A stretch of DNA of 61,509 nucleotides, the filler included, from Candidatus Aminicenantales bacterium (GTDB lineage Bacteria > Acidobacteriota > Aminicenantia > Aminicenantales > Saccharicenantaceae): the NCBI GenBank assembly GCA_049512315.1. It is 3 parts of 3 records of this genome, joined end to end, with 100 filler letters (N's around TTAATTAATTAA, not from the genome) between each part and the next. Parts side by side here need not be neighbours in the genome. Positions count along the whole stretch, not along the records: positions 1 to 25,441 come from JBEKXF010000043.1; 2 more parts are not named here. One strand, given 5' to 3'. How positions within the stretch are numbered: position 1 is the stretch's first letter; every line of letters begins with the position of its first letter. The position numbers were made by a program, and so were the translations under genes. The notes beneath the pieces were generated by a model, which was not told the DNA's origin, did no database searches, and saw only the letters and a list, made by a program, of their open reading frames with translations. Below are positions 1,340 through 25,322 of this stretch, piece by piece.

Positions 1340-1811
1340 TTGATCTGCCCCTCTTAAATCGGTCCAGGTAAAATGAGAGAAAACCTAGGAGACAGCCTTT
1401 TCAGTTCGTCCCGGTCAAGAGCTAACTGAACCTCCTTGATTTATTTTGTCGATTCAATGAGGTTTATACAGTTATCCTTACATTCCAGCCTATCGGTCCC
1501 GCTCAATCCCGCTTGGCCCGCTACAAGCCTTCCTCCGAAGATTTCCCAGAGGGGAAAGGCGCGCCGCGCCCCTAGAAGCCCGGTAATGGCCCGATAGGCC
1601 CCTCTCGACAAGCCCGTTGAGCCTCCGGCTCTCCCAATAGGGCCGATACGGCCCCTCAGGAGCCTGCAGGTCTCATACGAAGGGGAGGATGTTCGTCGTC
1701 GGCGACAGGGAGCTTCTGCCGGACCCTCCTATAGCCCGGCGTTCGGCCTTTATGGGGATCGCTGGAGAGGCTCGGACCTATTCCTCTCGTATCTAGCGGC
1801 GGCAATCACGT

Positions 1812-1841
1812 TTGACTTCCCGTCCATCCCTCTGTTAATCT
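1812..1841 (+). promoter_or_regulatory. Putative sigma70 promoter of kinase gene
   Basis: TTGACT-18bp-TAATCT; the paralogous kinase has TTGACT-17bp-TATCCT (9647-9619, minus strand). Confidence 0.5.
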
Positions 1842-1869
1842 GAGGCCAAGTAAGAATAGAGGAGCTCGC

Positions 1870-4359
1870 TTGGCTATCAAGTGTCCGAAGTGTCACTCCG
1901 AAAACCCTGAGACCAAACAGTTCTGCGCTGATTGCGGCACTCAGCTCCCTCCGCCCCAAGGCCAGCCCCCGGTCGTGACGGAAACCCTTCAGACACCCGT
2001 CCGCGAACTTACAACGGGCTCGACCTTCGCCGGCCGGTACCAGGTCATCGAGGAGCTCGGCCACGGCGGCATGGGCCGGGTTTATAAAGTCCAGGACACG
2101 GACATCAAGGAGAAGGTCGCCCTCAAGCTCCTCCGGCCCGAGATCACCCTGGATAAGGAAGCGGTCGAGCGGTTCTCGAACGAATTGAAACTCGCCCGCA
2201 AGATCGGCCACAGGAATGTCTGCCGTATGTTTGACCTGGGCAGGGCCGAAGGCACGACCTTCATCACCATGGAATTCGTGCCGGGAGAGGACCTGAAGAG
2301 CTTCCTCCATAGGGCAAAACAGCTCAGCATAGGAACCGCAATCTCCATTGCCAAACAAGTGTGTGAGGGATTGGAGGAGGCGCACAGGCTGGGGGTTGTT
2401 CACCGGGATCTGAAGCCCGGCAATATCATGATCGACAAGGACGGGGATGCCAAGATCATGGACTTCGGGATCGCCCGGTCACTCTCGGGGAGAGGCATCA
2501 CGGGCGCCGGGGTGCTGATCGGGACACCGGAATACATGAGCCCGGAGCAGGTCGAGGGGAAAGACATCGATCAGAGATCGGACATCTATTCGCTGGGGGT
2601 CATTCTCTACGAGATGGTCACGGGGCGGATTCCCTTTGCAGGCGAGACACCGCTCAGCGTCGCCCACAAGCACAAGTATGAAACGCCCGAGGACCCGAAG
2701 AAGATCAACGTCCAGGTGCCTGACGCCCTTGCCCGGGTCATCCTCAAGTGCCTAGCTAAGGATAGAAACGAGAGGTTTCAGAGCGCGGCCGAGCTCGGGA
2801 CCGAGCTAGGACGAATAGAACAAGGCCTTCCCACGACGGATCGAGTTGTCCCTGAGAAGAGGCCGATCACTTCGAAAGAAATAACTATCACTCTTGGAAT
2901 AAGAAAGCTTGCCCTGCCTGTCATAGTTTTCCTCGTCCTTGCCGCGGTCATCGTGCTAGCCGTGCTCTTCTTTTCCAAAAAGAAGCCCGTTTCTGGATTA
3001 GTTGAAAAATCCTCAGTTGCGATTATGCCCTTTGAAGACTTGAGTCAAGACAAAACGCACGAATACATCGGCGACGGTATTGCCGATACCCTGATCTCTG
3101 CCCTCAGCACAATCCAGGGACTGAAAGTCCCGGCCAGAACGTCCGCCTTTTCCCTTAGAGGAAAGGATATGGATGTCCGTTCCATCGGTCAAAAATTGAA
3201 TGTCAAGAATGTGCTTGAGGGAAGCGTCCAGGTTGTTGGCGACAAACTCCGAATAACGGCCAGGCTCAGTAATGCCGTAGACGGCTTCCAAATCTGGTCG
3301 GAGGTCTATGAAAAGAGTTCACAGGACATTTTTGCGATTCAAGACGATATCGCGCAGAAAATCATCAAAGCTCTGAAGATAAGATTGTTCGGTGAGAAAG
3401 AAACACAAGTCGTTCACCGCTACACGAATAATAAAGAGGCTTATGATTCCTATATGCAGGGGGTCTTCTTCGAGGCCAAGAGGGGAAAAGCAAACTTAGA
3501 GAAAGCAGTCACCTTTTTCCAAACCGCGATTGATAACGATCCAAGTTATACCCTGGCCTATGCTCGTCTAGCCAATTGTCTCATAAGGATGGCCCAGTGG
3601 CCTTTTCTTCCTGGCCGGGATGCCTTTCCTAGAGCACGTGAGGCAGCCAACAGAGCTTTAGAACTTGATCCTTCTTTCTCAGGAGCTCATAACTCTTTGG
3701 CCCAATTGAAGTTTTATTTCGATTGGGATAGGGAGGGTGCGGAGAAAGAGTTTAAGACGGCTCTTGCTCTCAATCCGAACGATTCAGAGGCTCATAAAGA
3801 GTATGGAGATTATTTATATCGTTGTCATGGATATTTTGGTCAAGGACGTCTTGACGAAGCTCTCCAAGAATATAAGAAAGCCCAAGAACTCGACCCTCTC
3901 TCTCTTATCATTCTTACTCAATGGGGATGGTTCCTACCGGACGATCAGCGAATAAAGCACTACGAAAAAGTTCTTGAAATGGACCCGGATTTCCAGCCTG
4001 CTCAAAATTCTCTGGCAGGTGCATATCTCAAGATAGGGAGTTATGACAAAGCCCTGGCCCTATATGAAAGAATAGATCGACAACCGTATGTTGGCTATAC
4101 CTATATAAAGATGGGAAAAATATCGGAAGCACGTCAAGTTTTAAACAAACTGCTCGAAAATCCCTACCCAGATTCATGGGGGATAGCAAGGCTATGTTTT
4201 TTATTGGGAAAGAAAAATGAAGGCTTCGAATGGCTTGATAAAGCCTGTGAAGATAAATACTACTATTTATGGGAGCTGAAATCTAATCCCGATTTTGAGA
4301 GTGCTCACGGAGACCCGCGATTTCAGGCAATACTCAAGAAGATGGGCCTGGAAAAATAG
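1870..4359 (+). CDS. Hanks-type Ser/Thr kinase with N-terminal double zinc ribbon, TM helix, TolB-like/adenylate-cyclase-associated domain and TPR repeats
   Basis: CPKC..CADC, LGHGGMGRV, HRDLKPGN, DFG, GTPEYMSPE; SVAIMPFEDLS; TPR helices; C-terminal DPRFQAILKKMGL; TTG start after GAGGAG. Confidence 0.93.
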   Translation: MAIKCPKCHSENPETKQFCADCGTQLPPPQGQPPVVTETLQTPVRELTTGSTFAGRYQVIEELGHGGMGRVYKVQDTDIKEKVALKLLRPEITLDKEAVERFSNELKLARKIGHRNVCRMFDLGRAEGTTFITMEFVPGEDLKSFLHRAKQLSIGTAISIAKQVCEGLEEAHRLGVVHRDLKPGNIMIDKDGDAKIMDFGIARSLSGRGITGAGVLIGTPEYMSPEQVEGKDIDQRSDIYSLGVILYEMVTGRIPFAGETPLSVAHKHKYETPEDPKKINVQVPDALARVILKCLAKDRNERFQSAAELGTELGRIEQGLPTTDRVVPEKRPITSKEITITLGIRKLALPVIVFLVLAAVIVLAVLFFSKKKPVSGLVEKSSVAIMPFEDLSQDKTHEYIGDGIADTLISALSTIQGLKVPARTSAFSLRGKDMDVRSIGQKLNVKNVLEGSVQVVGDKLRITARLSNAVDGFQIWSEVYEKSSQDIFAIQDDIAQKIIKALKIRLFGEKETQVVHRYTNNKEAYDSYMQGVFFEAKRGKANLEKAVTFFQTAIDNDPSYTLAYARLANCLIRMAQWPFLPGRDAFPRAREAANRALELDPSFSGAHNSLAQLKFYFDWDREGAEKEFKTALALNPNDSEAHKEYGDYLYRCHGYFGQGRLDEALQEYKKAQELDPLSLIILTQWGWFLPDDQRIKHYEKVLEMDPDFQPAQNSLAGAYLKIGSYDKALALYERIDRQPYVGYTYIKMGKISEARQVLNKLLENPYPDSWGIARLCFLLGKKNEGFEWLDKACEDKYYYLWELKSNPDFESAHGDPRFQAILKKMGLEK

Positions 4360-4400
4360 CCTAGTCCGACAGGCCTATCCAGATTTATTTCCTTTGAAAA

Positions 4401-4424
4401 ACTCCGGATCCAAAGGTCGGAGGT
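4401..4424 (+). repeat. 24-bp tRNA-Arg(CCG) fragment (att-like), identical to 8153-8176
   Basis: ACTCCGGATCCAAAGGTCGGAGGT at both positions. Confidence 0.85.
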
Positions 4425-4456
4425 GTCAGATCGCAGGCGTGGACGAGGTCTGGCGG

Positions 4457-4993
4457 CTACTTTTCTGGATTCATCAGAAGTTCTAATAAGGACACCGGAG
4501 GCTGCTTGTCCATGTCCGCGAGCATCTTGAGCGTCGCCTCGTCGGGCTTGAACAACTTCACTAAGTTGGCCGTGACGTCGACGAGCTCGATGGAGGGATC
4601 CTTGTGGACGACCTCCCACTTGCTCACGATGATATCGACCCCCGCCTCCCGGGCGACGTTAGGCAGATCGGCCTTGACCGCTTCGAGAATATCGGCCACC
4701 GAGGCGACGCTGAAAACCTGTTGCATTTGGACCTGATGCCGAGCAGGGCCTTCGGCCTCGCATTCCTTGATCGTCTTTTCATCGTTCTCGGCCTTGGCTT
4801 TTTCGTACTTTGCCTTCAAATCCCTCCTGACCGGGGCATAGAGCCCTGATCGGGCGTAGGCAAGGGCGACACCCCTGGAATCGAAGATGCCGACCCGGAA
4901 TTTCTTCGGAGCCGGCTGCAGGGCCAGGAACATCGCGCAGACAGCCAGGACAGAAAGTCCGACAAAGACCATTCGCCCAAAACCTTTTTTCAT
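4457..4993 (-). CDS. Exported hypothetical protein, weakly OmpH/Skp-like
   Basis: Signal/TM segment, then RVGIFDSR and a helical coiled region; GAGG RBS before MKKGFG. Confidence 0.6.
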   Translation of the reverse strand: MKKGFGRMVFVGLSVLAVCAMFLALQPAPKKFRVGIFDSRGVALAYARSGLYAPVRRDLKAKYEKAKAENDEKTIKECEAEGPARHQVQMQQVFSVASVADILEAVKADLPNVAREAGVDIIVSKWEVVHKDPSIELVDVTANLVKLFKPDEATLKMLADMDKQPPVSLLELLMNPEK

Positions 4994-5041
4994 CGGAACC
5001 TCCTTTGACGAAATTGATAAGAAAGACCGGAAGGTCATCGT

Positions 5042-5434
5042 CTATGTAGCGTTCGGTTTAAGCCGTTTTCTGGTTTGCCACCAGCAAAATATAAAGAGCA
5101 AGGCAGGCAATCCGTACAGCCCGGTAACTACAATATTTCCCCCCTCCGATGCAGGGGCAAGGATATTGAAGGCAATCAAACCACCCAATGCCATTGCGCC
5201 ACCAAGCCCCTCCCACTTCCATGCAATGATGAGACCGATGAACGCCAAGAACCCGAAAGCTGTCATTGGTATGCGGTCGCTATCGATAGCTATGCGTCCT
5301 TTTTCCACGCTTTCTGCCACCATTAAAAACAAGACTACGGCAACTGAGAGTGTCCCGATAATCCTTGCCAACCAGCGAATGATAATCACCGATCGAGTTG
5401 AGGCCGATGCAACATGTTTCATCTTTACCTCCAA
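5042..5434 (-). CDS. Small integral membrane protein
   Basis: Four hydrophobic segments; GLIIAWKWEGLGG motif. Confidence 0.7.
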   Translation of the reverse strand: MEVKMKHVASASTRSVIIIRWLARIIGTLSVAVVLFLMVAESVEKGRIAIDSDRIPMTAFGFLAFIGLIIAWKWEGLGGAMALGGLIAFNILAPASEGGNIVVTGLYGLPALLFIFCWWQTRKRLKPNAT

Positions 5435-5499
5435 TCTATTGACTCGCCCCCGCGCTTCAGGCCCAATGTCTCATAATATCGACCCATCTCTGCCATGAA

Positions 5500-5871
5500 C
5501 TAGATCTGTTCTCGCTTCCGCCGGGCCTTCATGGACGCAGCGAAGGCTCCGGCCCATGTGGTCCCAAAGCAACCGACGAGAATCACAAGGCCCTGGGCAA
5601 TGACCACTTCTCGTCTTTCCGTTAGGACCATACCGATAAATAAGGCGATCCATATGATATCCAGCGCGAGCATGACGGGCCAGTCCTTACGATTGGCGTC
5701 GGGATTGCCCCGTGACAATCGGAACTGGCAGAAGAAGAAGTAGGCCGCCATCAAAATGAACGCCAGAACCTCACCCGCGTCGCCCAGGTTTTCGCTCGCC
5801 GCTTCGAAGATGGCGAAGAACAGAAAGAAGGAGAGGAACCCCATGAGAAAAGCCTTTAATATTTTCGACAT
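5500..5871 (-). CDS. Small integral membrane protein
   Basis: Four hydrophobic segments; start MSKILKAF after a G-rich RBS. Confidence 0.65.
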   Translation of the reverse strand: MSKILKAFLMGFLSFFLFFAIFEAASENLGDAGEVLAFILMAAYFFFCQFRLSRGNPDANRKDWPVMLALDIIWIALFIGMVLTERREVVIAQGLVILVGCFGTTWAGAFAASMKARRKREQI

Positions 5872-6003
5872 TTTTGCCCCCCCTTTTCCAGGCATACGCT
5901 CAATATGAGCCGCTTCTTCCCATGCGCCAAGGGCTCCACAGAGAACGGTCAGCAAGCCGTTGATCATACTGAAGCAACAGGGGAAAAGAGGCTCGCTCTT
6001 CCA

Positions 6004-6975
6004 TTACAGAAGCTTTCCTATCCGTCCCCATCGGACTCCCCCCTCAGGATCAATGGAAAAGTAAACCAGCCTGGCCTTGGATACAATATCAATGAGCGGG
6101 ACGCATCCCCAATGTCGTGAGTCTGCACTGTTATCACGATTGTCACCGAGGACAAAACAGCAGCCCTCCGGGATGGAAACGCTTAAATCCTCTCTTGCAG
6201 CCCCCTGAAGATAAAAGACGCCATAAGTCCCAGAGTCCCCTTTTTCATAGAAAGCTATCGTCCCCTTCTTGATATTTTCATCCCCTCTCCCTTCAAGCTG
6301 AGGCACCCCTTGAACTGTCCATTTTATTCCATTTACGTAAAGCTCCATCCCTCTCAATTCAATTTCATCTCCTGGAAGGCCGATGATCCTTTTAATAAAA
6401 TGCATGTTCTTGTTTCGGGGATACTTAAAAACCACCAATTCCCCTCTTTTCAGGCCAAGGTTTTTCGACGTATGATCTATCCTCATATCTACCATGATCC
6501 AATCTCCGGGAAGGATAGTCGGCGCCATGCTCCCAGTTTGCATTCGGTAGGGGAGAGCAAAAAAGCAAATTTTTTGCCTATTAACGATTGGCCCGAAGGC
6601 GAATAGATTCAGTACAATGACAAGGAGGATGTAGACATAGAGCCTATTATAGACTCTCAATTTGTAGTTCTTATCCATCCGTTTGGCTTGCTTCCAAGCA
6701 TCTCGAGCAGCCCAAATAAATATGCCAAGGTCCGACGCTGAGGACAGAACCAAAAAAACAATCAGTATCAGATTGGGCCCCACAACACTCAACTGGAAGA
6801 AGAGAAAGGGGAGAGTCAACGAGGCCACGAAGAAGAGAATCCCTTTCCGTAGTTTTCCGTTGTAGAGTTGACCCAAACCAGTCAAAAGGAACGACAGGGC
6901 CAGGGCGAAAAGGGGCTTTCTTTCCCGGAATTTATCTTTTTTCTCTTCCATTTCTTTTCCTGAAGACATTCGCAT
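6004..6975 (-). CDS. lepB: Signal peptidase I with extra N-terminal TM domain
   Basis: Catalytic Ser in GSMAPT, Lys in FIKRIIGLPGD, and GDNRDNSADSR. Confidence 0.92.
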   Translation of the reverse strand: MRMSSGKEMEEKKDKFRERKPLFALALSFLLTGLGQLYNGKLRKGILFFVASLTLPFLFFQLSVVGPNLILIVFLVLSSASDLGIFIWAARDAWKQAKRMDKNYKLRVYNRLYVYILLVIVLNLFAFGPIVNRQKICFFALPYRMQTGSMAPTILPGDWIMVDMRIDHTSKNLGLKRGELVVFKYPRNKNMHFIKRIIGLPGDEIELRGMELYVNGIKWTVQGVPQLEGRGDENIKKGTIAFYEKGDSGTYGVFYLQGAAREDLSVSIPEGCCFVLGDNRDNSADSRHWGCVPLIDIVSKARLVYFSIDPEGGVRWGRIGKLL

Positions 6976-7040
6976 CTTATTCCTGGATTTGACTTTCAGA
7001 TCGCACTCCCTTCCGCTCTGAATCAGACTGGTTGCCTAAG

Positions 7041-7418
7041 CTATAGAGATGCATGAATCAACACCCCGGCGAAGAATCTGAGAATTTTAAACAGGCCGAA
7101 AACCGATCCGATTCCCACAAGCGCCCATTGTACCGCTCTCGAAAAGAAGATCATTTCCAAGAAGGGTAGCCTCCGCGCAAAGAGGCTGTCTCTTGTGCGC
7201 TTTTCTGCTTCTATTTTTACAACCACCCTGTCAGCGAAGCCGTTTGGCACATCCGCTCCCATCGCATTTCGGACACGGGAATCCAACTCCTCGAACCGAG
7301 CCGCGGTTTCAGAACAAGCGCTGCAGGAAAGAACGTGTTTTTGGTCCTCCGGGCTCAGTCCTCTGGCCCAGGCAATATCTTCTTGAATGAGATGGCAGGG
7401 ACGCCGAGGATCATTCAT
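7041..7418 (-). CDS. Zinc-binding (ZAS-type) membrane anti-sigma factor
   Basis: HVLSCSAC (HxxxCxxC) motif, C-terminal TM helix, 4-bp overlap with ECF sigma gene. Confidence 0.75.
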   Translation of the reverse strand: MNDPRRPCHLIQEDIAWARGLSPEDQKHVLSCSACSETAARFEELDSRVRNAMGADVPNGFADRVVVKIEAEKRTRDSLFARRLPFLEMIFFSRAVQWALVGIGSVFGLFKILRFFAGVLIHASL

Positions 7419-7966
7419 AGCACATTTTCCTTTTCAAGAATTTGTCTCAAGATCTGTTTTCCGCGGAAGACACGGGATTTGACGGTTCCCACGGGGCAGT
7501 CTTCGATGTGTGCAATTTCTTCGAGCGAAAGCTCATCAAAATAAGAAAGGATTACTGCTGTATGAAATTTTTCCGGCAGCCGGCTTATGGCATCGTGAAT
7601 TCGGGATTTAAGGCGGCGTTGTTCCAGGATTTCCTGAGGGCCTTTTTCATTCCTCCCGTGATTTTCGTCCCTGAATCCGCCGGAATGCTCCTTCCTTCGG
7701 CTCATCTTCGCCTTTTCGTTGATGGCCAGGTTGCGGGCAATCGTAATAAGCCATGTCGAGAAGGAAGCCCCCTTTTCGGAGTCAAAGTCAGTGATGTTTC
7801 TGTAGGCCCTCAGGAATGTTTCCTGGGCCAAGTCCTCTAGGACCTGCACCGGAAGCAGAAAATTTCCCAGATAAGAAAAAACCATTCGCTGGTAGCGAAG
7901 AATAAGGAGTCTAAAAGCGTCCGTGTTATTTTGAGCGGATTGTTCAACGAGCAACCGGTCGTCCAT
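7415..7966 (-). CDS. ECF sigma-70 factor
   Basis: EDLAQETFLRAY, FSTWLITIARN (region 2); EEIA..CPVGTVKSRVFRG (region 4). Confidence 0.93.
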   Translation of the reverse strand: MDDRLLVEQSAQNNTDAFRLLILRYQRMVFSYLGNFLLPVQVLEDLAQETFLRAYRNITDFDSEKGASFSTWLITIARNLAINEKAKMSRRKEHSGGFRDENHGRNEKGPQEILEQRRLKSRIHDAISRLPEKFHTAVILSYFDELSLEEIAHIEDCPVGTVKSRVFRGKQILRQILEKENVL

Positions 7967-8116: not shown

Positions 8117-9591
8117 TCAAATAGATCCTCTCTGATTCTCCCCAATGGCTGGACTCCGGATCCAAAGGTCGGAGGTTCGAATCCTCTCAGGCATCGCGGT
8201 CCTACCCCCCAGTAATTTGGCAAAACTCCCGGAAACTGAATCCTTTTCCCCTAGTGTATGCGTGCTTGACGTCAGGGCTTTCCCTTCGGTGAGGTTCAGT
8301 TTCTTGAGCACTCCGTTCACTTCGTCCTGCCGCAGCACCTTGAGGTATTTGGATGAGGAGAGGCCCGTGATGAGGAGCTCCGGAAAACCATAGCGCCAGT
8401 TCTCGAGGCTGGGGTCACCTGAATAGTTTTCAAAAGGGAGGACGGCAAGGGAAGGTCTCCCGGATGAAACAACCGGTTTATGAGGGGAAGGGTGCCAGAG
8501 GAGGATGGCGATAATGGCAAGAACAAGGAGACCAGCGGCTGGTATGAAGAGTCTCTTCGGCGTGAACTTCAGGGTGATCTCCCGAGAAGTAGCTGTCTTT
8601 CTCTCGGCAACTAAGCGGTCCGTCGTGGGAAGGCCCTGTTCTATTCTTCCGAGCTCCGCTCCTAGTTCGGCCGCACTCTGAAACCTCTCGTTTCTATCCT
8701 TAGCCAGGCACTTGAGGATGACCCGGGCAAGGTCGTCTGAAACTTGTGTGTTGAGCTTCTTCGGGTCCTCGGGAGCTTCATTTTTTTTTGCTTGTGGGCA
8801 ATGCTGAGCGGTGTCTCGCCTACAAAAGGAAGCCGCCCCGTCACCATCTCATAGAGAATGACGCCCAGCGAATAGAGATCCGACCTCTGGTCGACGTCTT
8901 TCCCCTCGACCTGCTCCGGGCTCATGTACTCCGGCGTTCCGATCAGCACCCCGGTGCCCGTGATGCCTCTCCCCGAGAGCGACCTGGCGATCCCGAAGTC
9001 CATGATCTTGGCATCCCCGTCCTTGTCGATCATGATATTGCCGGGCTTCAGGTCCCGGTGAACAACCCCTAGCCTGTGCGCCTCTTCCAATCCCTCACAG
9101 ACTTGCTTGGCAATGGATATTGCCGTTCCTATGCTGAGCTGTTTTGACCTGTGGATGAAGCTCTTCAGGTCCTCTCCCGGCACGAACTCCATGGTGATGA
9201 AGGTCGTGCCCTCGGCCCTGCCCAGGTCGAACATACGGCAGACATTCCTATGGCTGATCCTGCGGGCGAGTTTCAATTCGTTCGAGAACCGCTCGATCGT
9301 TTCCTTATCCAGGCTTATCTCGGGCCGCAGCAGCTTGAGGGCGACCTTCTCCTTGATGTCAGTGTCTTGGACTTTGTAGACCCGGCCCATGCCGCCGTGG
9401 CCCAGCTCCTCAATCACCTGGTAGTGCCCGGCGAAGGTGGAGCCTGTGGTCAGCTCGCGGACGGGTGCTTGAAGGGTTTCCGTCATGACCGGAGGATGGT
9501 CCTGGGGCGGAGGGAGTTGCGTCCCGCACTCCCCGCAGAATTTCAGGGTGTCAGGATTGTCGGAATGGCAGGTCGGGCAATTGTTGGCCAC
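8117..9591 (-). pseudogene. Frameshifted, truncated Ser/Thr kinase paralog, inverted relative to 1870-4359
   Basis: Kinase domain nearly identical to copy 1; A9 run at 8781-8789 shifts the frame; downstream frame continues EAPEDPKK...SLAVLPFEN, loses homology near 8280 and reads through the tRNA fragment. Confidence 0.88.
8150..8194 (+). pseudogene. 3' half of tRNA-Arg(CCG), probable att-site remnant
   Basis: Anticodon arm TGGA-CTCCGGA-TCCA, variable loop AAGGTC, T-arm GGAGG-TTCGAAT-CCTCT; no D-arm or 5' acceptor strand; 3' end degenerate. Confidence 0.85.
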
Positions 9592-9866
9592 TGTTGGCCC
9601 CCTTTGTTTGCTGGCCGAAGGATAACGCCGTTAGGGAGGGAAGTCAACCTGGGCGGGGCTCTGAGGTTTCCGACAAAGGCCCCAGCGGAGAGAAATACTC
9701 AGAATCAGTGAATCGAACAAAGTGCCCCACATATATATATCAACGATCAATATGCTATATGACACTATAATGAAAGCAACGTTCAATTCCGCATCAGCTG
9801 CTTACGGCGGTCCTTATTAGGTGCTAATGCGTCATAAATTTTGACTGCGATCCGCGGCCGGAAGAG

Positions 9867-11213: not shown

Positions 11214-11325
11214 CACAGCGAAAAGACCCGCCCCGGGAACATCGTCGAGGCCATGTTCGACAGGCGGGCCTTCGGCAAGCAGTTCCACGACCCCGCGACG
11301 TGGTCGAACTGGGTGGTCTGCCTGA
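11053..11325 (+). pseudogene. Truncated Lys/Ala-rich protein fused by deletion to the terminase region
   Basis: Homologous to the 18818 ORF up to VDANAAA, then continues out of frame in terminase DNA. Confidence 0.75.
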
Positions 11326-13927: not shown

Positions 13928-13933
13928 TTCTAT

Positions 13934-14594: not shown

Positions 14595-14595
14595 T

Positions 14596-15597: not shown

Positions 15598-15606
15598 GAA
15601 CCGGCC

Positions 15607-17226: not shown

Positions 17227-17249
17227 TCGCGTTCGAAAGGTGAACGAGC

Positions 17250-18563
17250 ATGAAAAGAATCATCGTGGGCCTTAGCATAATTTCCGGACTATTGGCGCCT
17301 ATGCGAGGGATCGCTCAGACACCCCAGCCGCGTACGCTGACCTTGGCAGAGGCGGTCAGGGCCGTTCTCGCGCGCAATAGTTCCCTGAAAGAAGCCGAGG
17401 ATGCCGTGGCCGTGTTCGAGGCCCGGGTGGCGCAAAGCAAGACCCGCCTGATGCCCAATGTCCGGGCCGACCTCGACTACGCGCGGATCGCTCCGACCGA
17501 AGAGATCGCCATCCCCGGCTTTGGTGTCTTCCAGCTTTTCCCCGCGAATAACTATGATTTCCACGCCGGAGTGAACCAGCTCATCTACGATTTCAACCGG
17601 ACCAAAGAAGCCGTTAACCTTTCCCGCTCCCAGGTGGAGAGCGCCGCGGACCGCTGGGAAATCCTCAAGCGGGACCTCGCCTTTCAGACCTGTCAATTGT
17701 TCCACTCCATCGTCTTCCTCCAGGACACCATCCGCGTTCAAACGGAAACGATCAAAACTCTGGACGATCACCTGGCCGTGGCCAGGAAGAAACTCGAGGC
17801 CGGAACGGCTACAGAACTCGAGGTCCTCAATACCCAGGTCCGTCTCGTCACCGCCCAAAACCAAGTCGTGGATCTGAACGACGCCCTCGAGAAACAGATG
17901 CTCGGCCTGCGCCGCTTGATGGGAATCGAAGACCAGACTCCACTCGAGCTGCAGGGCGGGTTCAAGTATGAACCTCAGGCTCTCGATCCGGAAGGCTTGG
18001 TCCGCGAGGCCGAGCAAACGCGGTTAGAAACCAAAGCCGTCCAGGACGTGATCCGTTCAGCCGACATCCAGATCCGTTTGGCCGAACTTTCGGATCGGCC
18101 ATCCCTCAGCGTGAATGTTTTGGCCGGGTGGAAGAGCGGCTACATCCCCAACCTGAATGTCTGGAAGCTTAACTATGTGGCCGCCGTGCAAGCCAATGTC
18201 CCTATTTTCAACGGCCACCTGGCCCGTTCGATGAAAGCGGAGGCCGAGGCCAACCTGCGAACCCTCCGGGACAGGAGCAGCGACGTTGAGGGCATGGTCC
18301 GAATGGAAGTGCTGCAGGCCGCCGCCGATGTCAAGGCCGCCGCCCAGAAGCTCGAGTCGGTGGAAATCAATGTCGTGCGGGCTAAGAAGGCCTTGGAGTA
18401 TGCCAGATCGCGCTATGAGGCCGGCACGGTGACGAACCTGGATTTGCTGGACACCGAGGACGCTTACGCGCAGGCGGAGTTGTTCAGGCTCCAGGCGCTC
18501 TACCAGTTTGTCCTGAGCAAGCTCACCCTCCAGCGGGCCGTCGGCAATCCGCTTTCGGAGTGA
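17250..18563 (+). CDS. TolC family outer membrane efflux protein
   Basis: Signal peptide, RYEAGTVTNLDLLD, VPIFNG; in operon with emrAB. Confidence 0.9.
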   Translation: MKRIIVGLSIISGLLAPMRGIAQTPQPRTLTLAEAVRAVLARNSSLKEAEDAVAVFEARVAQSKTRLMPNVRADLDYARIAPTEEIAIPGFGVFQLFPANNYDFHAGVNQLIYDFNRTKEAVNLSRSQVESAADRWEILKRDLAFQTCQLFHSIVFLQDTIRVQTETIKTLDDHLAVARKKLEAGTATELEVLNTQVRLVTAQNQVVDLNDALEKQMLGLRRLMGIEDQTPLELQGGFKYEPQALDPEGLVREAEQTRLETKAVQDVIRSADIQIRLAELSDRPSLSVNVLAGWKSGYIPNLNVWKLNYVAAVQANVPIFNGHLARSMKAEAEANLRTLRDRSSDVEGMVRMEVLQAAADVKAAAQKLESVEINVVRAKKALEYARSRYEAGTVTNLDLLDTEDAYAQAELFRLQALYQFVLSKLTLQRAVGNPLSE

Positions 18564-18665
18564 GAAAAAAAGGCCCGGGCGGACCGGGCTGTGCGCTGTT
18601 CCTCATCCATGAAAGAAGGACCAAATCATAGTACCTGATTATATTCGTGAAGCCCCGAGGTCTAT

Positions 18666-19210
18666 GCCCCCCCGAAATCCCGATATCCTACGGTCCCAGA
18701 TAGGAATAATGTTTTTCGTAACCAGGTCTTTATCTGCGACTTGCTGACGAACATCCTTGTGTGCTTTCCGGGACCCGTCTGAGACTATAGACCTGCGGGA
18801 AAAAGGAGCCCGTTAGAATGAGCAAAACGAAAAACGGCAAGGCGACCACCGCGAAGGTCGTCAAGGCCGCCGAACTCGTCCGCGCGGCGGTCCCGACTGG
18901 GACGGAAACCAAGGCGAAGGCGGCGGAAAAGACTGAGGCGAAAGCCGCCGCCAAGCCGGCCAAAACGAAGGTCGACAAGGAGGCCAAGATCCAAGGCCAG
19001 GTCGACGCCAACGCGGCCGCGATCCTCAAGGCCCACGACGAGGGCAAGTCGGTCAAGGAGCTCTACAAGATGTTCGGGACCAACAAGGGCCTCTTCTGCG
19101 ACCTCGTCTACGTCGTCCTCTGGAAGGCGGGCCGCCTGCCCAATAGCAGGTACCTTCGTCCATCCTAGGCCGGAGCGGAAAGAGGACTAGGTCGGACGGG
19201 ACCGCCGGAC
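18666..19210 (+). repeat. Repeat unit copy C (most complete: R1 leader + gene + R2)
   Basis: 5' part matches 10911-11213; 3' part matches 20768-20800 and 22782-22824. Confidence 0.9.
18818..19168 (+). CDS. Small basic Lys/Ala-rich protein with HTH-like C-terminus
   Basis: Histone H1-like KA repeats; ILKAHDEGKSVKELYKMFG..LVYVVLWKAG resembles an HTH; AAGGAG RBS. Confidence 0.65.
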   Translation: MSKTKNGKATTAKVVKAAELVRAAVPTGTETKAKAAEKTEAKAAAKPAKTKVDKEAKIQGQVDANAAAILKAHDEGKSVKELYKMFGTNKGLFCDLVYVVLWKAGRLPNSRYLRPS

Positions 19211-19316
19211 GTGACCTACGAAAATTATCTTTATTACCTGGAGGGGAAGAAGGCGATCCTCTAGTGGGAGTTGACTTTCTTCTCTACCGGCGATAGAGGG
19301 AGACGCATTCCCTTCC

Positions 19317-20183
19317 TTATTTTCTTATCTCATCCCCTTTGAAAGGTTCGGAGAAGAACTTCATCACCGTTCGATTGAAAAGATCGGGATTGGTGCCGGT
19401 TATCCAATGTGTCTCGCCCGGGAAGATGCACAGATTGGCCTTGGGAATGTGCCGGTAAATGAAGAGAGTGTGTTCTTCCCTGATCAAGTCTCGGTCCGCA
19501 GACATGACGAGCACAGGGGTCTTGATCTTTTTCAGGTCAGCGGTCGAAATGTGCGGTTGGAATTCCATCAGCCTGTTCAGTTGTCTGATCAGAACCCAGT
19601 TCTTCGTGGTGTCCTTTTTTCCGATCATCTCTTCGGCATGCGTCCGATCCTGATGGATTTTTTCGGCCTCATGAGCATAGCAAGCCGTTGGGCCCGGCCA
19701 GAGGTTGGCGCCGAAGACAGCGATCTTCTTCATTTTTTCAGGAAAATAGATCCCCATCAGCAGACCGATGACGCCGCCGTCACTTCTCCCGATGAGATAG
19801 GCGGGCGCGACGTGCAAATGGTCCAGAAGAGAAGCCGCGTCTTGGGCCATTTGCATGTAGGTCAGGGGTTCCTGGCTCAGCTCGGATTTCCCCCTGCCCC
19901 TGCAATCCATGGCGATGACTTGATAGAACTTGGAAAAATACTCGATCTGGAATTTCATGGCCGCGATGTTCCCGCCATTGCCATGCAGGAGGATCAGGGG
20001 ATCTCCTTTTCCGTAGATCTCATAATAGAGCTTAACGCCGTTGATGACTGCGTATTGGCCGGCCTCTGGATTGTCCCCATAGGGGACGGCCGATTGCGGA
20101 ACCGATGGCCCGTGCGGCAGCACGGATGCGCTTAAAAGAATTAACCCGGAAAAAAGCAAAGACACAAAGCTCTGCGATTTCAT
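19317..20183 (-). CDS. Secreted alpha/beta fold hydrolase
   Basis: LLHGNGG, DCRGRGKS, nucleophile GRSDGG, catalytic His in GETHW. Confidence 0.9.
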   Translation of the reverse strand: MKSQSFVSLLFSGLILLSASVLPHGPSVPQSAVPYGDNPEAGQYAVINGVKLYYEIYGKGDPLILLHGNGGNIAAMKFQIEYFSKFYQVIAMDCRGRGKSELSQEPLTYMQMAQDAASLLDHLHVAPAYLIGRSDGGVIGLLMGIYFPEKMKKIAVFGANLWPGPTACYAHEAEKIHQDRTHAEEMIGKKDTTKNWVLIRQLNRLMEFQPHISTADLKKIKTPVLVMSADRDLIREEHTLFIYRHIPKANLCIFPGETHWITGTNPDLFNRTVMKFFSEPFKGDEIRK

Positions 20184-20732
20184 TTTAGGACTCCCGCCGC
20201 ATGTGCGGCTTCTCGCCAGGCGGACGCTCGCACCTTTTATCTCGGAAATGGATCGTTCTCAAGCGCGATTTCTGCAGCAATGCCGGCTTTTTCAAGACCT
20301 AGATCTAGCCCCATCGCTCCTGAGAAGAAGGACCAAGATTTCATCTCTATATCGCCTCCTTTACATCTTAATCGTCATTGACTAATAAAGCATAGGGCTA
20401 CTGCTTGAGCAAGGGGAGTGTCAGATATTCTGTGTAAACCCCTTCTTCGCATTTAAGCACATTCACCCAAACGGTCGCCAAAATAGATCATCCGCTCAGA
20501 GTATATCATAGCCCAGTCCCCGTGGCGGAGGGTCCAGTTCTCCTAACCTTCCAACTAGTGGTTTGCCTCTCCCGCGCCCGCAGAAGGCCCCTCTCGCGCC
20601 CTCTTGCGCATTTTCTGCGCTTTTCCCAGCATAAGGGCACGGGGAAAGTTCGGCTCTGAACCCTTTAAGGGCCATTAGGCCAAAAATAGCCGTAGACGCC
20701 GCCTGCCCGAGAGCGAGTGCGCCGCCCGCGTC

Positions 20733-20860
20733 GCCGCCAAGCACTCCGCGGCCCTCGACCGCCGCCTCGTCCTCCCCAGGCCGGAGCGGAAAGAGAAGTA
20801 ACGTTTCTAGTTTCCCCAGATCATGTGCCCCCGTCCCTCCAGCGGGGGGATTTTTTTATC
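20733..20860 (+). repeat. Repeat unit copy D (R2 gene end + terminator)
   Basis: Encodes AAKHSAALDRRLVLPRPERKEK*; then CCCCCG/CGGGGG hairpin and T7. Confidence 0.8.
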
Positions 20861-20891
20861 CCAAAAAAAACAAGAGAGAAGCTACCAGTTA

Positions 20892-22550
20892 CTATCGAAT
20901 GTGTTTCCCCGCTTTCTTCATCTTCTCGGCCATCCCCATCATGGTTTGCACGAGAACAGGTGAAACACCTTCAATCAATCCCACTTCGTCCAGGCTGCGA
21001 AAGTAGCCACGAGAATGCCGAGTGGCCACAATGCGAGCGGCGAGCGCCGAGGCAACACCCGGCAGCGTCATTAACTCGGCCTCAGACGCAGTGTTGAGAT
21101 CGATGGAAAGTGGCAGGGTCCGCTCGCGCTCCCACACTGCGCGTGCAATCATGAAATCGCCGTTCAGCAGCCAGAGCTCCGGCCCGAGATTGGCGTCCAA
21201 CGGAAGGCTCCCTTTGGCCACGCGGTTCGTGAGCTGGTCGAGGAGCGAGAACGCAGCACGGGAGTCCTGGCGGAATGAGTCAATGTCACCAACCTGCCCC
21301 GTCACCGCGGCGCGCTCGAACGCAACTGCGGCTTCTTGCGATACTGTTACGCCATACGTCGTGGACAGGAAAAGGTCATACGCAGTTTTGGCTTCTTCCG
21401 GGAACAGCTTGGCGTAAGCTTCGATGAGCATGATCGCAAGCGGACGACTGGGATCATCTGCCTGGGGAGCAATCTGCCGCATGGCAGCAAAGAGTTTCAG
21501 ATTTATATTTTCGTAGGGAGAAATTTCCTTCTGCGGGTCCGCGCCCCTCCCCGCATTTGCTTCCAGAAACTGACGATAGAAAGCCGGCTCATAATACTTG
21601 TTGCGCAGGCTTTCGCGGTTCACGAGACGATAGAACAGAGTGGCGATTACCCCCTCGCTCGCCATCATTTCCTGAGCGTTCTTGAGGGTGTTGGGCAGGA
21701 ACTCGATCGAGGTCTCCCCATCCAAGAACACACGATAGGCGTCCGTGTCTATCCCCGATATCGCTGCGGGCGGTGCCTTGCGGTGCACGAAAAGATTCCG
21801 CTTCACCCCATCGGTTCGCAGTTGGGTGTCCAGATTGCTCAACCAAAGCAAATCCAGGTCAGTCGTGCCCGTCCCGGATTGGATTTTCCGCAAGGTCGAG
21901 TTATTGGTCCCATCCCGCGCCAAGGGTTGAAAGTGCTCGGCGTAGCCCTCGTCGAAAGCGGTCGGGTAGTCCGTCACGGTCATACTCTGATGCATTTTCC
22001 GTGACGGTCCATGGCTCAGATCACCGAGGAGCGACCGTAAGATGAGGTGCCCGAGCTCATGACAGAAGGTTTCCTCGAAGTCTCCGCCACTGACGCTACT
22101 CTGGTCCACGACCAAATCGATATACCCGGCCATGACCAGTTCTCTCCGGCCATTCGCACGTTCCATCCAGAAACCGTAACGTGCAAATCCGCCCTCCTCG
22201 TTGGACAACAACAAGTACATGGGTTCAAGAGAAGCCGGCTCCGATTCGTCGGTGGCTGCGTTCCTCTCTCGCGAGCGTAGAGTGCGTGCAAAGCGTTCGA
22301 GCACCAGCACTTGTTGGGCCGGGCCGGAACGCAGGACTCCGCGTATCTGGCTGACCAAGGGCGATTCGGGCAGCTGACGAAAGAGGGGGTACTGCTTTCC
22401 GTCAGGAGCTATAGCCTCCACAATGTGGCCTTGAGCATCAGTGACGGGACTGACGATCTCAACCGGAGCGGGTGTAGATCCACTTGCCATGGCGGTCGGC
22501 CCGACCAGAATGCAAAGGCAAAACCATGAAACCCTGTATACGCTTTTCAT
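20892..22550 (-). CDS. Exported HEXXH metallopeptidase-like protein with C-terminal helix-hairpin-helix (ComEA-like) domain
   Basis: Signal peptide; FCHELGH and downstream DEGYAE; IDLNTASEAELMTLPGV...ARIV..R...GYFRSLDEV. Confidence 0.75.
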   Translation of the reverse strand: MKSVYRVSWFCLCILVGPTAMASGSTPAPVEIVSPVTDAQGHIVEAIAPDGKQYPLFRQLPESPLVSQIRGVLRSGPAQQVLVLERFARTLRSRERNAATDESEPASLEPMYLLLSNEEGGFARYGFWMERANGRRELVMAGYIDLVVDQSSVSGGDFEETFCHELGHLILRSLLGDLSHGPSRKMHQSMTVTDYPTAFDEGYAEHFQPLARDGTNNSTLRKIQSGTGTTDLDLLWLSNLDTQLRTDGVKRNLFVHRKAPPAAISGIDTDAYRVFLDGETSIEFLPNTLKNAQEMMASEGVIATLFYRLVNRESLRNKYYEPAFYRQFLEANAGRGADPQKEISPYENINLKLFAAMRQIAPQADDPSRPLAIMLIEAYAKLFPEEAKTAYDLFLSTTYGVTVSQEAAVAFERAAVTGQVGDIDSFRQDSRAAFSLLDQLTNRVAKGSLPLDANLGPELWLLNGDFMIARAVWERERTLPLSIDLNTASEAELMTLPGVASALAARIVATRHSRGYFRSLDEVGLIEGVSPVLVQTMMGMAEKMKKAGKHIR

Positions 22551-22734
22551 ATGATCTCCTAGAAACAAACAAATCGGCATCTGCATTCGGATCTTGCCGA
22601 CTGACGCGAAGCCCGGCTCTTCGATGTAAGAACCAGGGCCTAGTCGCAGCGGAGCGGGTAGCGCGGAATAACCTGCCCCTCCTCAATCTACCATCTCAGA
22701 AGTGAGATTTTCAAGCAAGTACGCCGAGCGCGCC

Positions 22735-22860
22735 GCCGCGAAGCACCCCGTGACCCTAGATCGACGTTTCATCAACCTCAGGGCCGGAGCAGAAGGAGGA
22801 CTAAGCCGGCCGAGGCCGCCGGGCCCAAAGCCCCGCTGGCCAGGCGGGGCTTTTTTTTAT
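22735..22860 (+). repeat. Repeat unit copy E (R2 gene end + terminator)
   Basis: Encodes AAKHPVTLDRRFINLR/PEQKED*; terminator AAAGCCCCGC-N7-GCGGGGCTTTTTTTT at 22827-22858. Confidence 0.8.
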
Positions 22861-22893
22861 CATCCAAAAAATATCTAGGCCTGGTTCATACAG

Positions 22894-22932
22894 TCCCTAG
22901 TTCAGGCCAAGAACGGTCAGCAGAAGCGCGGA
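22894..22932 (+). repeat. R3 repeat copy 1
   Basis: TCCCTAG..GGCCAAGAACGGTCAGCAGAAGCGCGGA. Confidence 0.8.
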
Positions 22933-22990
22933 TTGAAGTGGAGAATGATCAGCGGTAGAATTAGGGCAAGTCAGTCGAGGAGATGGCGAT

Positions 22991-23290
22991 ATGACAGGTT
23001 TCAACACGAAATCCGATGGGAAGGCTTTTGACGAAGCCACGATTAAAGCCGTCTGGCAAAAGGGAACGCCAGAACCAGGCTATACAGGTTTCCGAAAGGA
23101 TATCTGCGGTGCGAGTATGCAGAGGACAGATTATGACAAACTAGAACGGTGGGGGTGGGAGATCGATCATATTAAACCGGTCTCAAAGGGTGGCACAGAC
23201 GACTTAAGCAACTTACAGCCGCTCCAGTGGGAGAACAACAGGCATAAGGGCGATAATTATCCTGGCAAGTTTTGCAAAGTAAAATCGTAA
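22991..23290 (+). CDS. Small stand-alone HNH endonuclease
   Basis: WEIDHIKPVSKGGTDDLSNLQPLQWENN; RBS GAGGAG; TTGAAG-17bp-TAGAAT upstream. Confidence 0.9.
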   Translation: MTGFNTKSDGKAFDEATIKAVWQKGTPEPGYTGFRKDICGASMQRTDYDKLERWGWEIDHIKPVSKGGTDDLSNLQPLQWENNRHKGDNYPGKFCKVKS

Positions 23291-23311
23291 GATTTGCAAA
23301 CCCTATAGCAA

Positions 23312-23353
23312 TCCCTAGCCCGGCCCGAGAACGACCAGCAGAAGCGCGGAGAA
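23312..23353 (+). repeat. R3 repeat copy 2
   Basis: TCCCTAGCCCGGCCCGAGAACGACCAGCAGAAGCGCGGAGAA. Confidence 0.8.
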
Positions 23354-23624
23354 GGTGCGGGCTGTTGTCAGCAAAAGGGGGGATGATGGGAACAAAAAGG
23401 TGGGGACTTTCCCCAGCCCGCGCAAGAAAGCCAATGCAATGATTGGCCAGCCGAAACATAAAGTCAAGAAATAGTTTTTATGACACTACTTCTACTTAGG
23501 GATTACCCTCTCAAAGGCTTTGATTTAGAATCCACTCAAACATGCGTTAGGAGTCAGCTCAATGGCAAATGGGAGAAACCTTTTGATTTGTGCCGCCAAC
23601 ACGCCCCGGCGCATGCGAGGCAAC

Positions 23625-23661
23625 AGCTCGGCCCGAGGACGGCCAGCAGAGGCGCGGAGAA
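23625..23661 (+). repeat. R3 repeat copy 3
   Basis: AGCTCGGCCCGAGGACGGCCAGCAGAGGCGCGGAGAA. Confidence 0.8.
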
Positions 23662-23731
23662 ATGAGGAAAAGGATTGAAAAGGCAGTTCGGCCGGGTTTA
23701 TGATCGGGGAAAGTCAGTTAGGAGGTGTGAG

Positions 23732-24106
23732 ATGGACCCTTCTGAACGAGCGTCGCATTGGATCAGCAATTCTTTGGCGCCAGTTTTTGATTTCCTGGTT
23801 AACGATCTCGGGGGGAAAGGGTATCAGGCGTCACTATCTAAGCAGACCGATCAGGCACTGACGCTCAGTTTCTCTAAAGAAGGAAACAGGTTCGAATATA
23901 CGATAGGTTGCATGATAAGGCCCACGCCAATCCCGAACTGGCCTGAGGGTCACGTAGATCTTGATTGCTCTTACCGTGTCAACAATATGAAAAGTCCCGT
24001 TCAGTTTCGAAATATCAACGCCAAGTACGACATAGAAGACATCGGTGAGAAAGAGATCGTCGAACATTTCCGTAAGACGTTCCGACGCTGGCTAAGTCGT
24101 AGATGA
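23732..24106 (+). CDS. Hypothetical protein
   Basis: AGGAGGT RBS; TTGAAA-18bp-TATGAT promoter; globular composition. Confidence 0.65.
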   Translation: MDPSERASHWISNSLAPVFDFLVNDLGGKGYQASLSKQTDQALTLSFSKEGNRFEYTIGCMIRPTPIPNWPEGHVDLDCSYRVNNMKSPVQFRNINAKYDIEDIGEKEIVEHFRKTFRRWLSRR

Positions 24107-24186
24107 TGGGGCGCCGAGGGGAGCCAGAGGCCCCGACGAGCATGGACTCCCCAGCTTGCTCAGCAGGACGCTGGTGAAGGTGGATA

Positions 24187-24232
24187 CGCGCCTCACAGGG
24201 GAGAGACGTTGGACGGGGCGTGGAAGCCTTAG
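24187..24232 (+). repeat. R4 repeat copy 1
   Basis: 32 of the first 37 nt identical to 25057-25093. Confidence 0.8.
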
Positions 24233-24249
24233 CGGAAAGGGGTGAGCAT

Positions 24250-24696
24250 ATGAAAACCGAAACCGAAAACTATGAACTGCTCTTCGGCTCGAACAGGATC
24301 CTGAAATGTGGTAAGGCCGTGGAACTGGTAGGGAAAGGAATTAACAAGCAGATCATCAGGTTCAGGGAAGGAGAGGACGGAAAGGTGCTGATGGGCTGCA
24401 CAGTGAGAGATCAATCGGGGAGCATAGTAGCCATAGTAGCCAATAGCCGAGTACAACATGTGGCCCAGGGATACCGAGCCGATGTGACAAGGGAAGGGAT
24501 CAGGGTGATCAGCGAGGGCATGAGAGAGGTCTGGTTAGAGTTCATCCGGACAGGTCCTGGGACGTTGAAGCTCAACGGGCAGTTCTTCGTGCCTGGATAC
24601 AGGATCATCGCCTCCGATGAGGGCCTCATGATCAACGGGAACAAGATCAGCCGGTGTACGTTTGAAAGCTGTGGGGCCGCCGTAGGACTGGGGTGA
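24250..24696 (+). CDS. Hypothetical beta-rich protein
   Basis: Purine-rich ORF with AAGGGGTGAG RBS. Confidence 0.65.
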   Translation: MKTETENYELLFGSNRILKCGKAVELVGKGINKQIIRFREGEDGKVLMGCTVRDQSGSIVAIVANSRVQHVAQGYRADVTREGIRVISEGMREVWLEFIRTGPGTLKLNGQFFVPGYRIIASDEGLMINGNKISRCTFESCGAAVGLG

Positions 24697-24794
24697 GGTC
24701 AGGGAAACTGCCAACAACCACCCAGTAAAGATCATATAGAAAGCCCAGGCACATCTAGCATGGTTCGATAGAGTTAGCGAAAGGAGAGATCAGC

Positions 24795-25022
24795 ATGGAG
24801 CATTTTGTGAACCGGTTCATTATCGAGACAAAGAGGGGACCACACTATTACATCAATCTGGACCAGGTCAAGAGGATCGTGGTAGATCACAAGGATGGAA
24901 AGAGCACAGCCATCACATTCCACTTCTCTAAGGATGACCAAGTAAGGTTTGACAGGGACGGGCTGGAAAGACCATTGGAGGAGCTGGTCAGGAAACTGAT
25001 CGAGATCGAAATCCACCCTTGA
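24795..25022 (+). CDS. Small hypothetical protein
   Basis: AAGGAG RBS; YYINLDQVKRI beta motif. Confidence 0.6.
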   Translation: MEHFVNRFIIETKRGPHYYINLDQVKRIVVDHKDGKSTAITFHFSKDDQVRFDRDGLERPLEELVRKLIEIEIHP

Positions 25023-25056
25023 TGTAAAGAACGGGGGCGTCGTAATCGGCGGTAAT

Positions 25057-25103
25057 CGCGCCTCATAGAGGATAGACGTTAGATGGGGCGTGGGAAGTCT
25101 CAG
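25057..25103 (+). repeat. R4 repeat copy 2
   Basis: CGCGCCTCATAGAGGATAGACGTTAGATGGGGCGTGGGAAG. Confidence 0.8.
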
Positions 25104-25106
25104 TAA

Positions 25107-25322
25107 ATGACAAACCCCACATACAAAGTCGTAGCCGAGAAGAAATTCGGCTTCAAGAAGTTGTTGGAACGACTAATCGGAAAAAGAACTCTTGGACAAG
25201 ATCAAGTCATCCAAGAGACGCTGAAAGAATGGCCGGAAGACCTCAAGGTCGTAGTTGGCAAAGCGGACGAGGAACTACTTAGTGGAAAGTCAGCCGTCGT
25301 AGAGATTGGGGGATTCGATTGA
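25107..25322 (+). pseudogene. Hypothetical gene probably truncated by IS3 insertion
   Basis: Its stop codon TGA is the first three bases of the IS terminus. Confidence 0.5.

Follow-up and report, generated by a model that had tools for sequence, protein, structure and literature searches.

How have unrelated genes come to be lined up between short direct repeats along a single contig of an uncultured Candidatus Aminicenantales bacterium (assembly GCA_049512315.1)? The window analysed is a stretch of 61,509 nucleotides joined from three contigs of this 3.55-Mb, 77-contig genome (completeness 96.6%). The repeat-bracketed island (1340–25320) belongs to positions 1–25441, which are one entire contig (C43), and positions 25442–61509 are two unrelated contigs (C44 and C45), placed behind N spacers and outside the island. 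The repeats are collinear pieces of a multi-copy Candidatus Aminicenantes element that carries a large terminase gene (terL) and in which no capsid gene was detected, and the cargo genes that they bracket occur in some paralogues, relatives and strains but are missing from others. The island is probably a patchwork of several copies of this element family, whose cargo most likely comes and goes through host recombination at short stretches of common backbone, without any recombinase dedicated to cassettes. In what follows, G000 is the genome itself, C-numbers are its contigs, G002 and G003 are relatives, L-numbers are further loci and X1–X7 are the seven sequencing runs whose contigs were examined.

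A preliminary description of this DNA had reported five families of direct repeats on the + strand, namely tRNA-Arg fragments (T) and R1 to R4, and all were confirmed where it had placed them. Nine pairs of sibling repeats score 40–218 bits, compared with 31.9 bits for the best of 40 shuffles, and the pair R3#1/R3#3 (31.0 bits) does not rise above these shuffles. Identity between siblings is only 73–94%, with perfect runs of 8–18 nt (24 nt for the tRNA pair). The two tRNA pieces match the tRNA-Arg(CCG) of C11 over 24 nt (T1, 4401–4424) and 44 nt (T2, from 8150), and ARAGORN finds no tRNA in the window. The three copies of R1 initially described are real, but a fourth, weaker one just behind terL (12771–12801) had been overlooked, and R1#1 and R1#3 are repeats of 300–350 bp that enter a small gene, not repeats of 31 bp. 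The families share no common core, and neither an attC inverse core nor a dif consensus (the latter a simple XerD-arm pattern) occurs in any of the 14 repeat copies with their flanks, as had been stated. In the genome, profile matches (14 for R1, 24 for R2, 10 for R3 and 59 for the IS3 end described below) are distributed over many islands, which concentrate in low-GC contigs and at contig ends. A scatter over the whole genome had been named as a finding that would speak against repeat-bracketed capture; the repeats are indeed widespread, yet they occur within islands only, in association with cargo boundaries.

The backbone can be reconstructed from other contigs of the same genome (C2, C5, C50, C59, C61, C67 and C72). 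Before R1, it carries a primase/helicase-like gene, small DNA-binding genes, the gene of a 203-aa tyrosine recombinase, o268, o174, o195 and terL. R1 is followed by a 120-aa gene (its 3' end constitutes R2), and then by a terminator-like hairpin, R3, a 124-aa gene, the relic W and R4. C61 runs from R1 through the 124-aa gene with zero insertions; the start of this contig holds an extra sigma70 3' end followed by the IS3 end. The copies of terL found on five other contigs are 86–88% identical, with a dN/dS of 0.09–0.14 which points to purifying selection, and terL-like matches were obtained in 16 of the 41 genomes searched (this one included). The relatives that share the backbone gene carry the title Candidatus Aminicenantes. 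The gene terL, previously counted among the cargo modules, belongs to the backbone, and the proposed origin of the repeats from the backbone of an integrative element that encodes a terminase is supported. The primase-like gene occurs in the sister copies C2, C5 and C50 and not in the window. No recombinase was found on C43 in searches with PF00589 and PF00239, in agreement with the original note. The proposed targeting of tRNA-Arg holds for some copies: the copy of C2 terminates in a large serine recombinase reading into the 3' half of tRNA-Arg(CCG), and G003:C27 has a 69% homologue at a full tRNA-Arg. It fails for the relative of the right end of the window, since G002:C25, 98% identical to 23625–25319, terminates in a serine recombinase at tRNA-His.

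Among the 234 open reading frames (ORFs) of the islands, none matches a capsid, portal or head-tail gene; PF05065 was not found in the genome, and no small terminase or capsid-morphogenesis gene was matched among 29 proteins in PHROGs. The genes o174 and o195 are paralogues conserved beside terL (G000:C50:6127–7385, L004). The predicted fold of o195 (pLDDT 90.5) gave no Foldseek match at E<0.001 and no Atlas match, its best Z being 6.0, on the beta-sandwich half. Both proteins, which lack a clear fold match, may have a divergent packaging role. The product of o268 looks sigma-like by eye, but its Pfam match reaches only E 0.083 and its 15 homologues are unnamed, so that no claim is made. Searches of viral contigs for terL patterns returned nothing, these exact patterns detecting close relatives only. 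A second compact element of the genome (G000:C1:77378–86424, L012) encodes an integrase, a helicase-like protein and a distant terL (32%), also with zero capsid matches.

As R1–R4 are collinear pieces of the backbone, their order in the window is that of the backbone. In 24 clusters taken together, 111 of the 112 pairs of neighbouring backbone repeats have a common orientation, and 98 of 111 steps go forward or stay equal. The 13 backward steps are found in 10 of these clusters. C61, L064 and L092 contain interleaved runs of the type R2-R3-R2-R3. The preliminary description had held the repeats to be ordered and never interleaved: the order survives as a tendency, and strict non-interleaving does not. 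In the window itself, other families fall between the repeats, namely the 47-bp IS3 end (10814 and 22670) and relics at 1341–1489 and 20414–20677.

It had been anticipated that cargo would differ among copies and that empty sites would be found, and both are the case. The predicted junction of 13857 with 18697 exists in C67, where the nitroreductase gene and R1 lead straight into the context of R1#3 and the marR-emrA-emrB-tolC module is missing. Hydrolase and HEXXH modules are missing in C61, C67, G003:C7 and G003:C9. In G002:C25, a single R3 stands where the window has R3#2, the non-coding cargo U and R3#3; its left part is that of R3#2 and its right part that of R3#3, the switch lying inside a 9-bp identical run. 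Contigs of run X5 (depth 77–95) join arm N, the sequence following T2, to an unsplit terL and include the nitroreductase, the marR modules and the hydrolase; one then jumps from R2 to 23713, the HEXXH module having a depth of 1–2 versus about 80–95 elsewhere. The same HEXXH module lies between R2 copies with a different neighbour in L092. Furthermore, 17 complete R1-gene units show 14 upstream and 17 downstream neighbour classes, and an identical outer flank is combined with different inner flanks in five classes, one of them a tandem artefact. Gain or loss by crossover inside the repeats is thus encountered in the hybrid R3 of G002:C25, the empty R1 site of C67 and the empty R2 sites of C61 and G003.

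Two kinds of joint are seen: some are crossovers that fall within a repeat, others are microhomologies of about 7–13 nt. R1#1 (10911–11213, +) comprises a conserved upstream region and, of the 120-aa gene, the 5' half. A 7/8-nt microhomology (11206–11213) fuses it to a terL gene deprived of about 40 N-terminal codons (11214–12767, +; Pfam, tblastn); on its other side, the inserted block terminates in homology to R2. In L084, the kinase and CAAX protease genes, the IS3 end, R1, the intact gene, R2 and the HEXXH module are contiguous, i.e. the window minus about 11214–20700. Compared with L084 and C59, the window has a joint based on homology and another based on microhomology, and orphan gene ends remain in their order. 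The direction of these events is one that we infer; in an equal-event alternative, an L084-type piece may have replaced o174-o195, the HEXXH module entering afterwards at R2.

The 47-bp motif P (P1, 10814–10861; P2, from 22670; both +), missed in the preliminary description, is the right end of an IS3-family insertion sequence (IS). A complete element in L072, with an orfA/orfB DDE transposase, has P as its right end and a left end resembling the window at 25320; the best NCBIfam match is IS3, at 139.6 bits on a fragment, below the cut-off of 160. A set of 105 copies of P was drawn from the genome and other loci, loci that duplicate this genome and 11 further duplicate loci being dropped and a few duplicates remaining; 72 of them keep the terminal TGA(C/T)(C/T) and 9 the transposase tail motif. 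The IS body and the 120-aa gene match over 12 of 13 bases exactly where P joins R2, as in the window, where P2 is fused at this match to R2#3, itself followed by a terminator-like hairpin (22670–22870, +). Among the 22 P-R2 joints, 19 distinct outer flanks are counted, and the joint itself exists in several variants, some of which show IS-type letters. Orphan R2 copies do not begin at random on the left but preferentially at the IS3 match: 41 of the 64 R2 matches (intact genes included) start at position 1. P1 and P2 match the sigma70 consensus and point outward, as predicted promoters, that of P1 facing the CAAX protease gene on the minus strand; no such role is assigned to R1, R3 or R4. R2#2, like R2#3, is directly followed by a terminator-like hairpin (20698–20868, +). 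The gene beside P reads away from it in 38 of 55 cases, versus a background of 56% (p = 0.033), and in 7 of the 9 P-R2 units, in the genome itself.

The account that we favour, with some reservation, has two steps: cargo would first be captured by microhomology joining with an anchor of homology, in many cases at IS ends, and would then be exchanged between repeats. During capture, DNA of a sister element or of the chromosome would pair through backbone homology, and its other end would be attached through a microhomology of some 7–13 nt, leaving a duplicated backbone piece in backbone order. Owing to their match with the 120-aa gene (12 of 13 nt), the right ends of IS3-family elements would often serve as partners; of the IS, no more than the outer 47 bp would then be kept, with their outward promoter-like sequence, beside the gene next to which the IS had landed. 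During subsequent shuffling, bracketed genes would pop out, pop in or be swapped by recombination between repeats of 30–350 bp. As these families have no common core, attC or dif, a single recombinase is unlikely to be responsible. Donor DNA might enter by helper-phage packaging through TerL or by transformation, and RecA, ComEC and DprA are encoded in the genome. A relaxed recombination by phage annealing proteins has been described (PMC3945230), and such proteins could be supplied here by a helper phage. More tentatively, and with a rather low probability in our opinion, this capsid-less large-terminase family might constitute an integrase-free platform for gene capture, combining a 13-nt landing match for IS3 right ends in its 120-aa gene, by which whatever gene lies beside an IS3 insertion could be hooked in along with a promoter, exchange between copies of the element via ordered repeats and spread in particles of helper phages.

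Several observations weigh against capture and shuffling by short-homology recombination. No empty R4 site was found among the compared loci, and no mini-circle in the contigs of the seven runs, which drop rare forms. No event in progress was seen either, the backward-going joints among the run contigs being allele swaps, and the four-gamete test gave 0 pairs in all five families tested. The Logan contigs, placed at 88–90% likeness, can mix organisms. The genome encodes MutS, so that the idea of a missing mismatch repair system was dropped, and no RecT, Erf, Rad52 or Sak4-type family was found in it; with siblings 73–94% identical and perfect runs of 8–18 nt, present-day recombination may be slow. 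The bias in the orientation of the genes beside P is modest, and P-R2 could have arisen few times and then been copied. Lastly, R1 has a very sharp left edge, with each of the 27 backbone matches that include it beginning at model positions 2–15, and this edge could be an enzyme-defined end. R1 and the IS3 tail show a likeness of 8–14 nt, and four R1 copies have, by eye, a remnant of the IS3 terminus at their C-rich left edge. A terminase cut site was considered on account of this edge and of the place of R1 behind terL, but it would leave R2–R4 unexplained.

An enzyme-defined end would suit a site-specific cassette system, in which the 203-aa tyrosine recombinase (or a serine recombinase) uses R1 or other repeats as att sites. 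This short recombinase is conserved at 88–90% in three copies and R1 has a 5-bp inverted repeat flanking a 7-bp spacer, but the protein scores 49.9 bits as an integron integrase (TIGR02249) against a cut-off of 265, the best symmetry of 11-bp arms in the repeats is 5–8 of 11, repeat lengths and right ends vary widely, and the lack of a common core, attC or dif tells against it too; we hold such a system to be unlikely. A stronger competitor, although still clearly less probable than recombination between backbone pieces, is tandem accretion and decay only, i.e. elements stacked at tRNA att sites and then reduced by long deletions, IS-mediated or random, each of almost one element length, without any later shuffling. 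Deletion across tandem copies would indeed give co-oriented, ordered duplicates, tRNA halves and IS ends are abundant, and accretion with cis-mobilisable elements is described (PMC5704250). Accretion probably explains the two tRNA-Arg pieces. Yet exchange inside repeats is required by the hybrid R3 of G002 and by the HEXXH module, which lies between R2 copies where its neighbours differ, and random deletions do not explain why the left ends of orphan R2 copies gather at the IS3 match.

According to the preliminary description, complete related circular elements had integrated by single crossovers in backbone homology, each bringing new cargo. The genome does harbour many related elements with different cargo, and the interleaved runs of C61, L064 and L092 are of the kind that whole-circle integration would produce. 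The window nevertheless contains a single terL, and neither a replication nor an integrase module occurs a second time, where a full duplication of the backbone and interleaved families would be expected, and its joints have one homologous and one microhomology side, or result from a single-repeat crossover, that at 11206–11213 being a fusion of two different genes. We regard this version as very improbable. Even less credit can be given to a chimeric assembly across repeats. The assembly is based on short reads, the island is rich in repeats and none of the run contigs spans the entire stretch 1340–25320, but near-identical contigs from runs X1, X3 and X4, one of which may be the source sample, bridge T1, P1-R1#1 and R1#2, most cargo blocks are covered, G002 has 23625–25319 at 98%, and L084 and L092 have other joints in common with the window.

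The remaining features can be followed along the contig. It begins with the 3' part of a groEL copy (1–1280, +; Pfam, tblastn), one of three in the genome. In L101, groES-groEL and the start of the next core gene are element cargo, inserted between two R1 copies (L101:3388–6263). The upstream ORF, of RNA-binding type by eye, has been copied along in the R1 slot there (see also G000:C72:1–504), and the genome holds three groEL ends. The terminator of groEL is joined to the TGA terminus of an IS3-like end relic (1341–1384), followed by a second repeated relic (1407–1489; both +), which may be IS256-like. A cargo made of a shared kinase promoter region and a Ser/Thr kinase-TPR gene (1808–4359, +; Pfam) precedes T1. 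Elsewhere in G000, long arrays of kinases and small genes with tRNA-Arg halves between them share an arm and a kinase promoter (C26, C34, C55). Between T1 and T2 lies a cargo with a GC content of 0.50 (4457–7966, −; Pfam), which encodes an extracytoplasmic function (ECF) sigma factor, a small downstream ORF, a signal peptidase and three small ORFs, and which runs X6 and X7 contain unaccompanied by the tRNA pieces. T2, the 3' half of tRNA-Arg, and arm N (8150–8262, +) precede o174-o195-terL in intact elements. Next come a truncated and frameshifted kinase gene and a CAAX protease gene (8268–10781, −; Pfam). This kinase copy (8268–9591) is cut at 8268 and has its frameshift at an A run near 8787, which is two letters shorter in X5.

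The cargo names proposed initially (ECF, lepB, terL, nitroreductase, marR-emrAB-tolC, hydrolase, helix-hairpin-helix, HNH) are backed by Pfam, except for the anti-sigma label, for which no family match exceeds the cut-off. Behind terL, the fourth R1 copy is accompanied by the relic M (12771–12867, +). The nitroreductase gene (13146–13733, −), which in C67 lies upstream of an unsplit R1, is separated by R1#2 (13827–13864, +) from marR-emrA-emrB-tolC (13934–18563, +), whose match in run X7 ends before reaching either R1 copy. R1#3 (18666–19211, +) comprises the upstream region and a copy of the backbone gene that has an internal deletion of 44 bp and encodes 116 aa; R2#1 is the end of this copy. 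It is followed by the alpha/beta hydrolase gene (19317–20183, −), the relic chain X-X2-Z (20414–20677, +; 21, 14 and 6 matches in the genome), R2#2, which is an orphan gene tail, and the gene of the HEXXH and helix-hairpin-helix protein (20892–22586, −), which also has different neighbours in L084. Beyond P2-R2#3, R3#1 and R3#2 (22891–23353, +) enclose an HNH endonuclease gene (22991–23290), and U precedes R3#3 (23354–23661, +). A 124-aa backbone ORF, W, R4#1, two orphan ORFs and R4#2 (23732–25103, +) have an identical arrangement in G002:C25 at 98%. The last feature is the 5' part of a 206-aa gene (25107–25441, +), cut at 25320 by an IS3-family left end within which the contig stops.

Two segments of the island might correspond to RNAs. 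U is a copy of a hairpin-rich non-coding sequence of about 85 nt (window 23354–23435; G000:C3:12157–12241; L050–L060), which is about 88–93% identical across most genomes of the family and bears a sigma70-like promoter on its minus strand. A 6.7-kb query matched 85 of 86 genomes, most of the best matches being to this piece. Rfam gave zero matches in eight loci with U, and on 1–25441 just two weak, sub-threshold ones. This sequence is a candidate for an unannotated small RNA copied into the element. W and R4#1 (24103–24197; L064, L067, L089, L018) have a predicted fold with a long closing stem, in which 3 of 23 predicted pairs show a compensatory change among six sequences, a weak hint of a structured leader RNA.

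How does such an island relate to known systems? Integrons are defined by an integron integrase and attC sites, and hold arrays of unrelated genes, some of them behind a supplied promoter. The island resembles them in outcome, as an array of unrelated genes some of which lie behind a supplied promoter-like sequence, but it differs in having no integron integrase and no attC, several unrelated repeats and cargo on both strands. The XerC/D dif-like sites that flank pdif modules are absent too, as judged by the simple XerD-arm pattern. The process is most likely of a known kind, short-homology recombination, in a new setting, and no account of this element family was found in the open-access literature. 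What is new here is the reconstruction of the backbone, the pairs of empty and filled sites and the joint at the IS3 end.

In the PeSL cassettes of the T4-type phages RB49 and phi1, promoter/terminator repeats bracket accessory genes (PMC2839356). As in these cassettes, gains and losses map to recombination between short bracketing repeats, with no dedicated integrase, but here the repeats belong to several unrelated families, derived from backbone, IS and tRNA ends, and reside in a bacterial chromosome; mini-circles are shown for PeSLs and not seen here. For type VI secretion system clusters of Vibrio cholerae and for Rhs loci, displacement arrays formed by homology-facilitated illegitimate recombination have been proposed (PMC5361080). 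The island shares with them one homologous anchor, one illegitimate joint and orphan gene ends in order, subsequently moved by homologous recombination. Unlike in these arrays, its cargo consists of unrelated metabolic and regulatory genes, the backbone has several points of displacement, and both a recurrent joint and a promoter-like sequence come from an IS3 end.

Prochlorococcus tycheposons are tRNA-targeted; besides cargo, they carry replication genes and a recombinase of the tyrosine or large serine type (bioRxiv 10.1101/2020.12.28.424599). The islands are likewise littered with partial tRNAs, and the sister copies C2, G003:C27 and G002:C25 have a serine recombinase at tRNA ends, but the packaging types of tycheposons, as far as that source describes them, encode a protein of the capsid or else a small terminase, with no extra cargo, where a large terminase is here combined with much cargo. 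The accretion of cis-mobilizable elements (CIMEs) and integrative and mobilizable elements (IMEs), in which decayed elements are stacked with att sites between them (PMC5704250), fits the two tRNA-Arg pieces; R1–R4, on the contrary, are internal backbone sequences and not att sites. Phage-inducible chromosomal islands (PICIs) and capsid-forming PICIs (cf-PICIs) also gather an integrase, small DNA-binding genes, a primase or replicase and a packaging gene (PMC10085698). As portrayed there, PICIs carry a small terminase and cf-PICIs carry terL with capsid and head-tail genes, so that an element with a large terminase and without detected capsid genes falls outside the satellite families of that account. 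Globally, the family reaches an integron-like outcome without an integrase in the chromosome of an uncultured lineage, and core genes (groES-groEL) were copied into this element as well. That an IS end is fused again and again at one fixed 13-nt match suggests a way for IS scars to turn into reusable adapters bearing a promoter, and the naturally occurring empty and filled alleles let the steps of recombination be read at base level.

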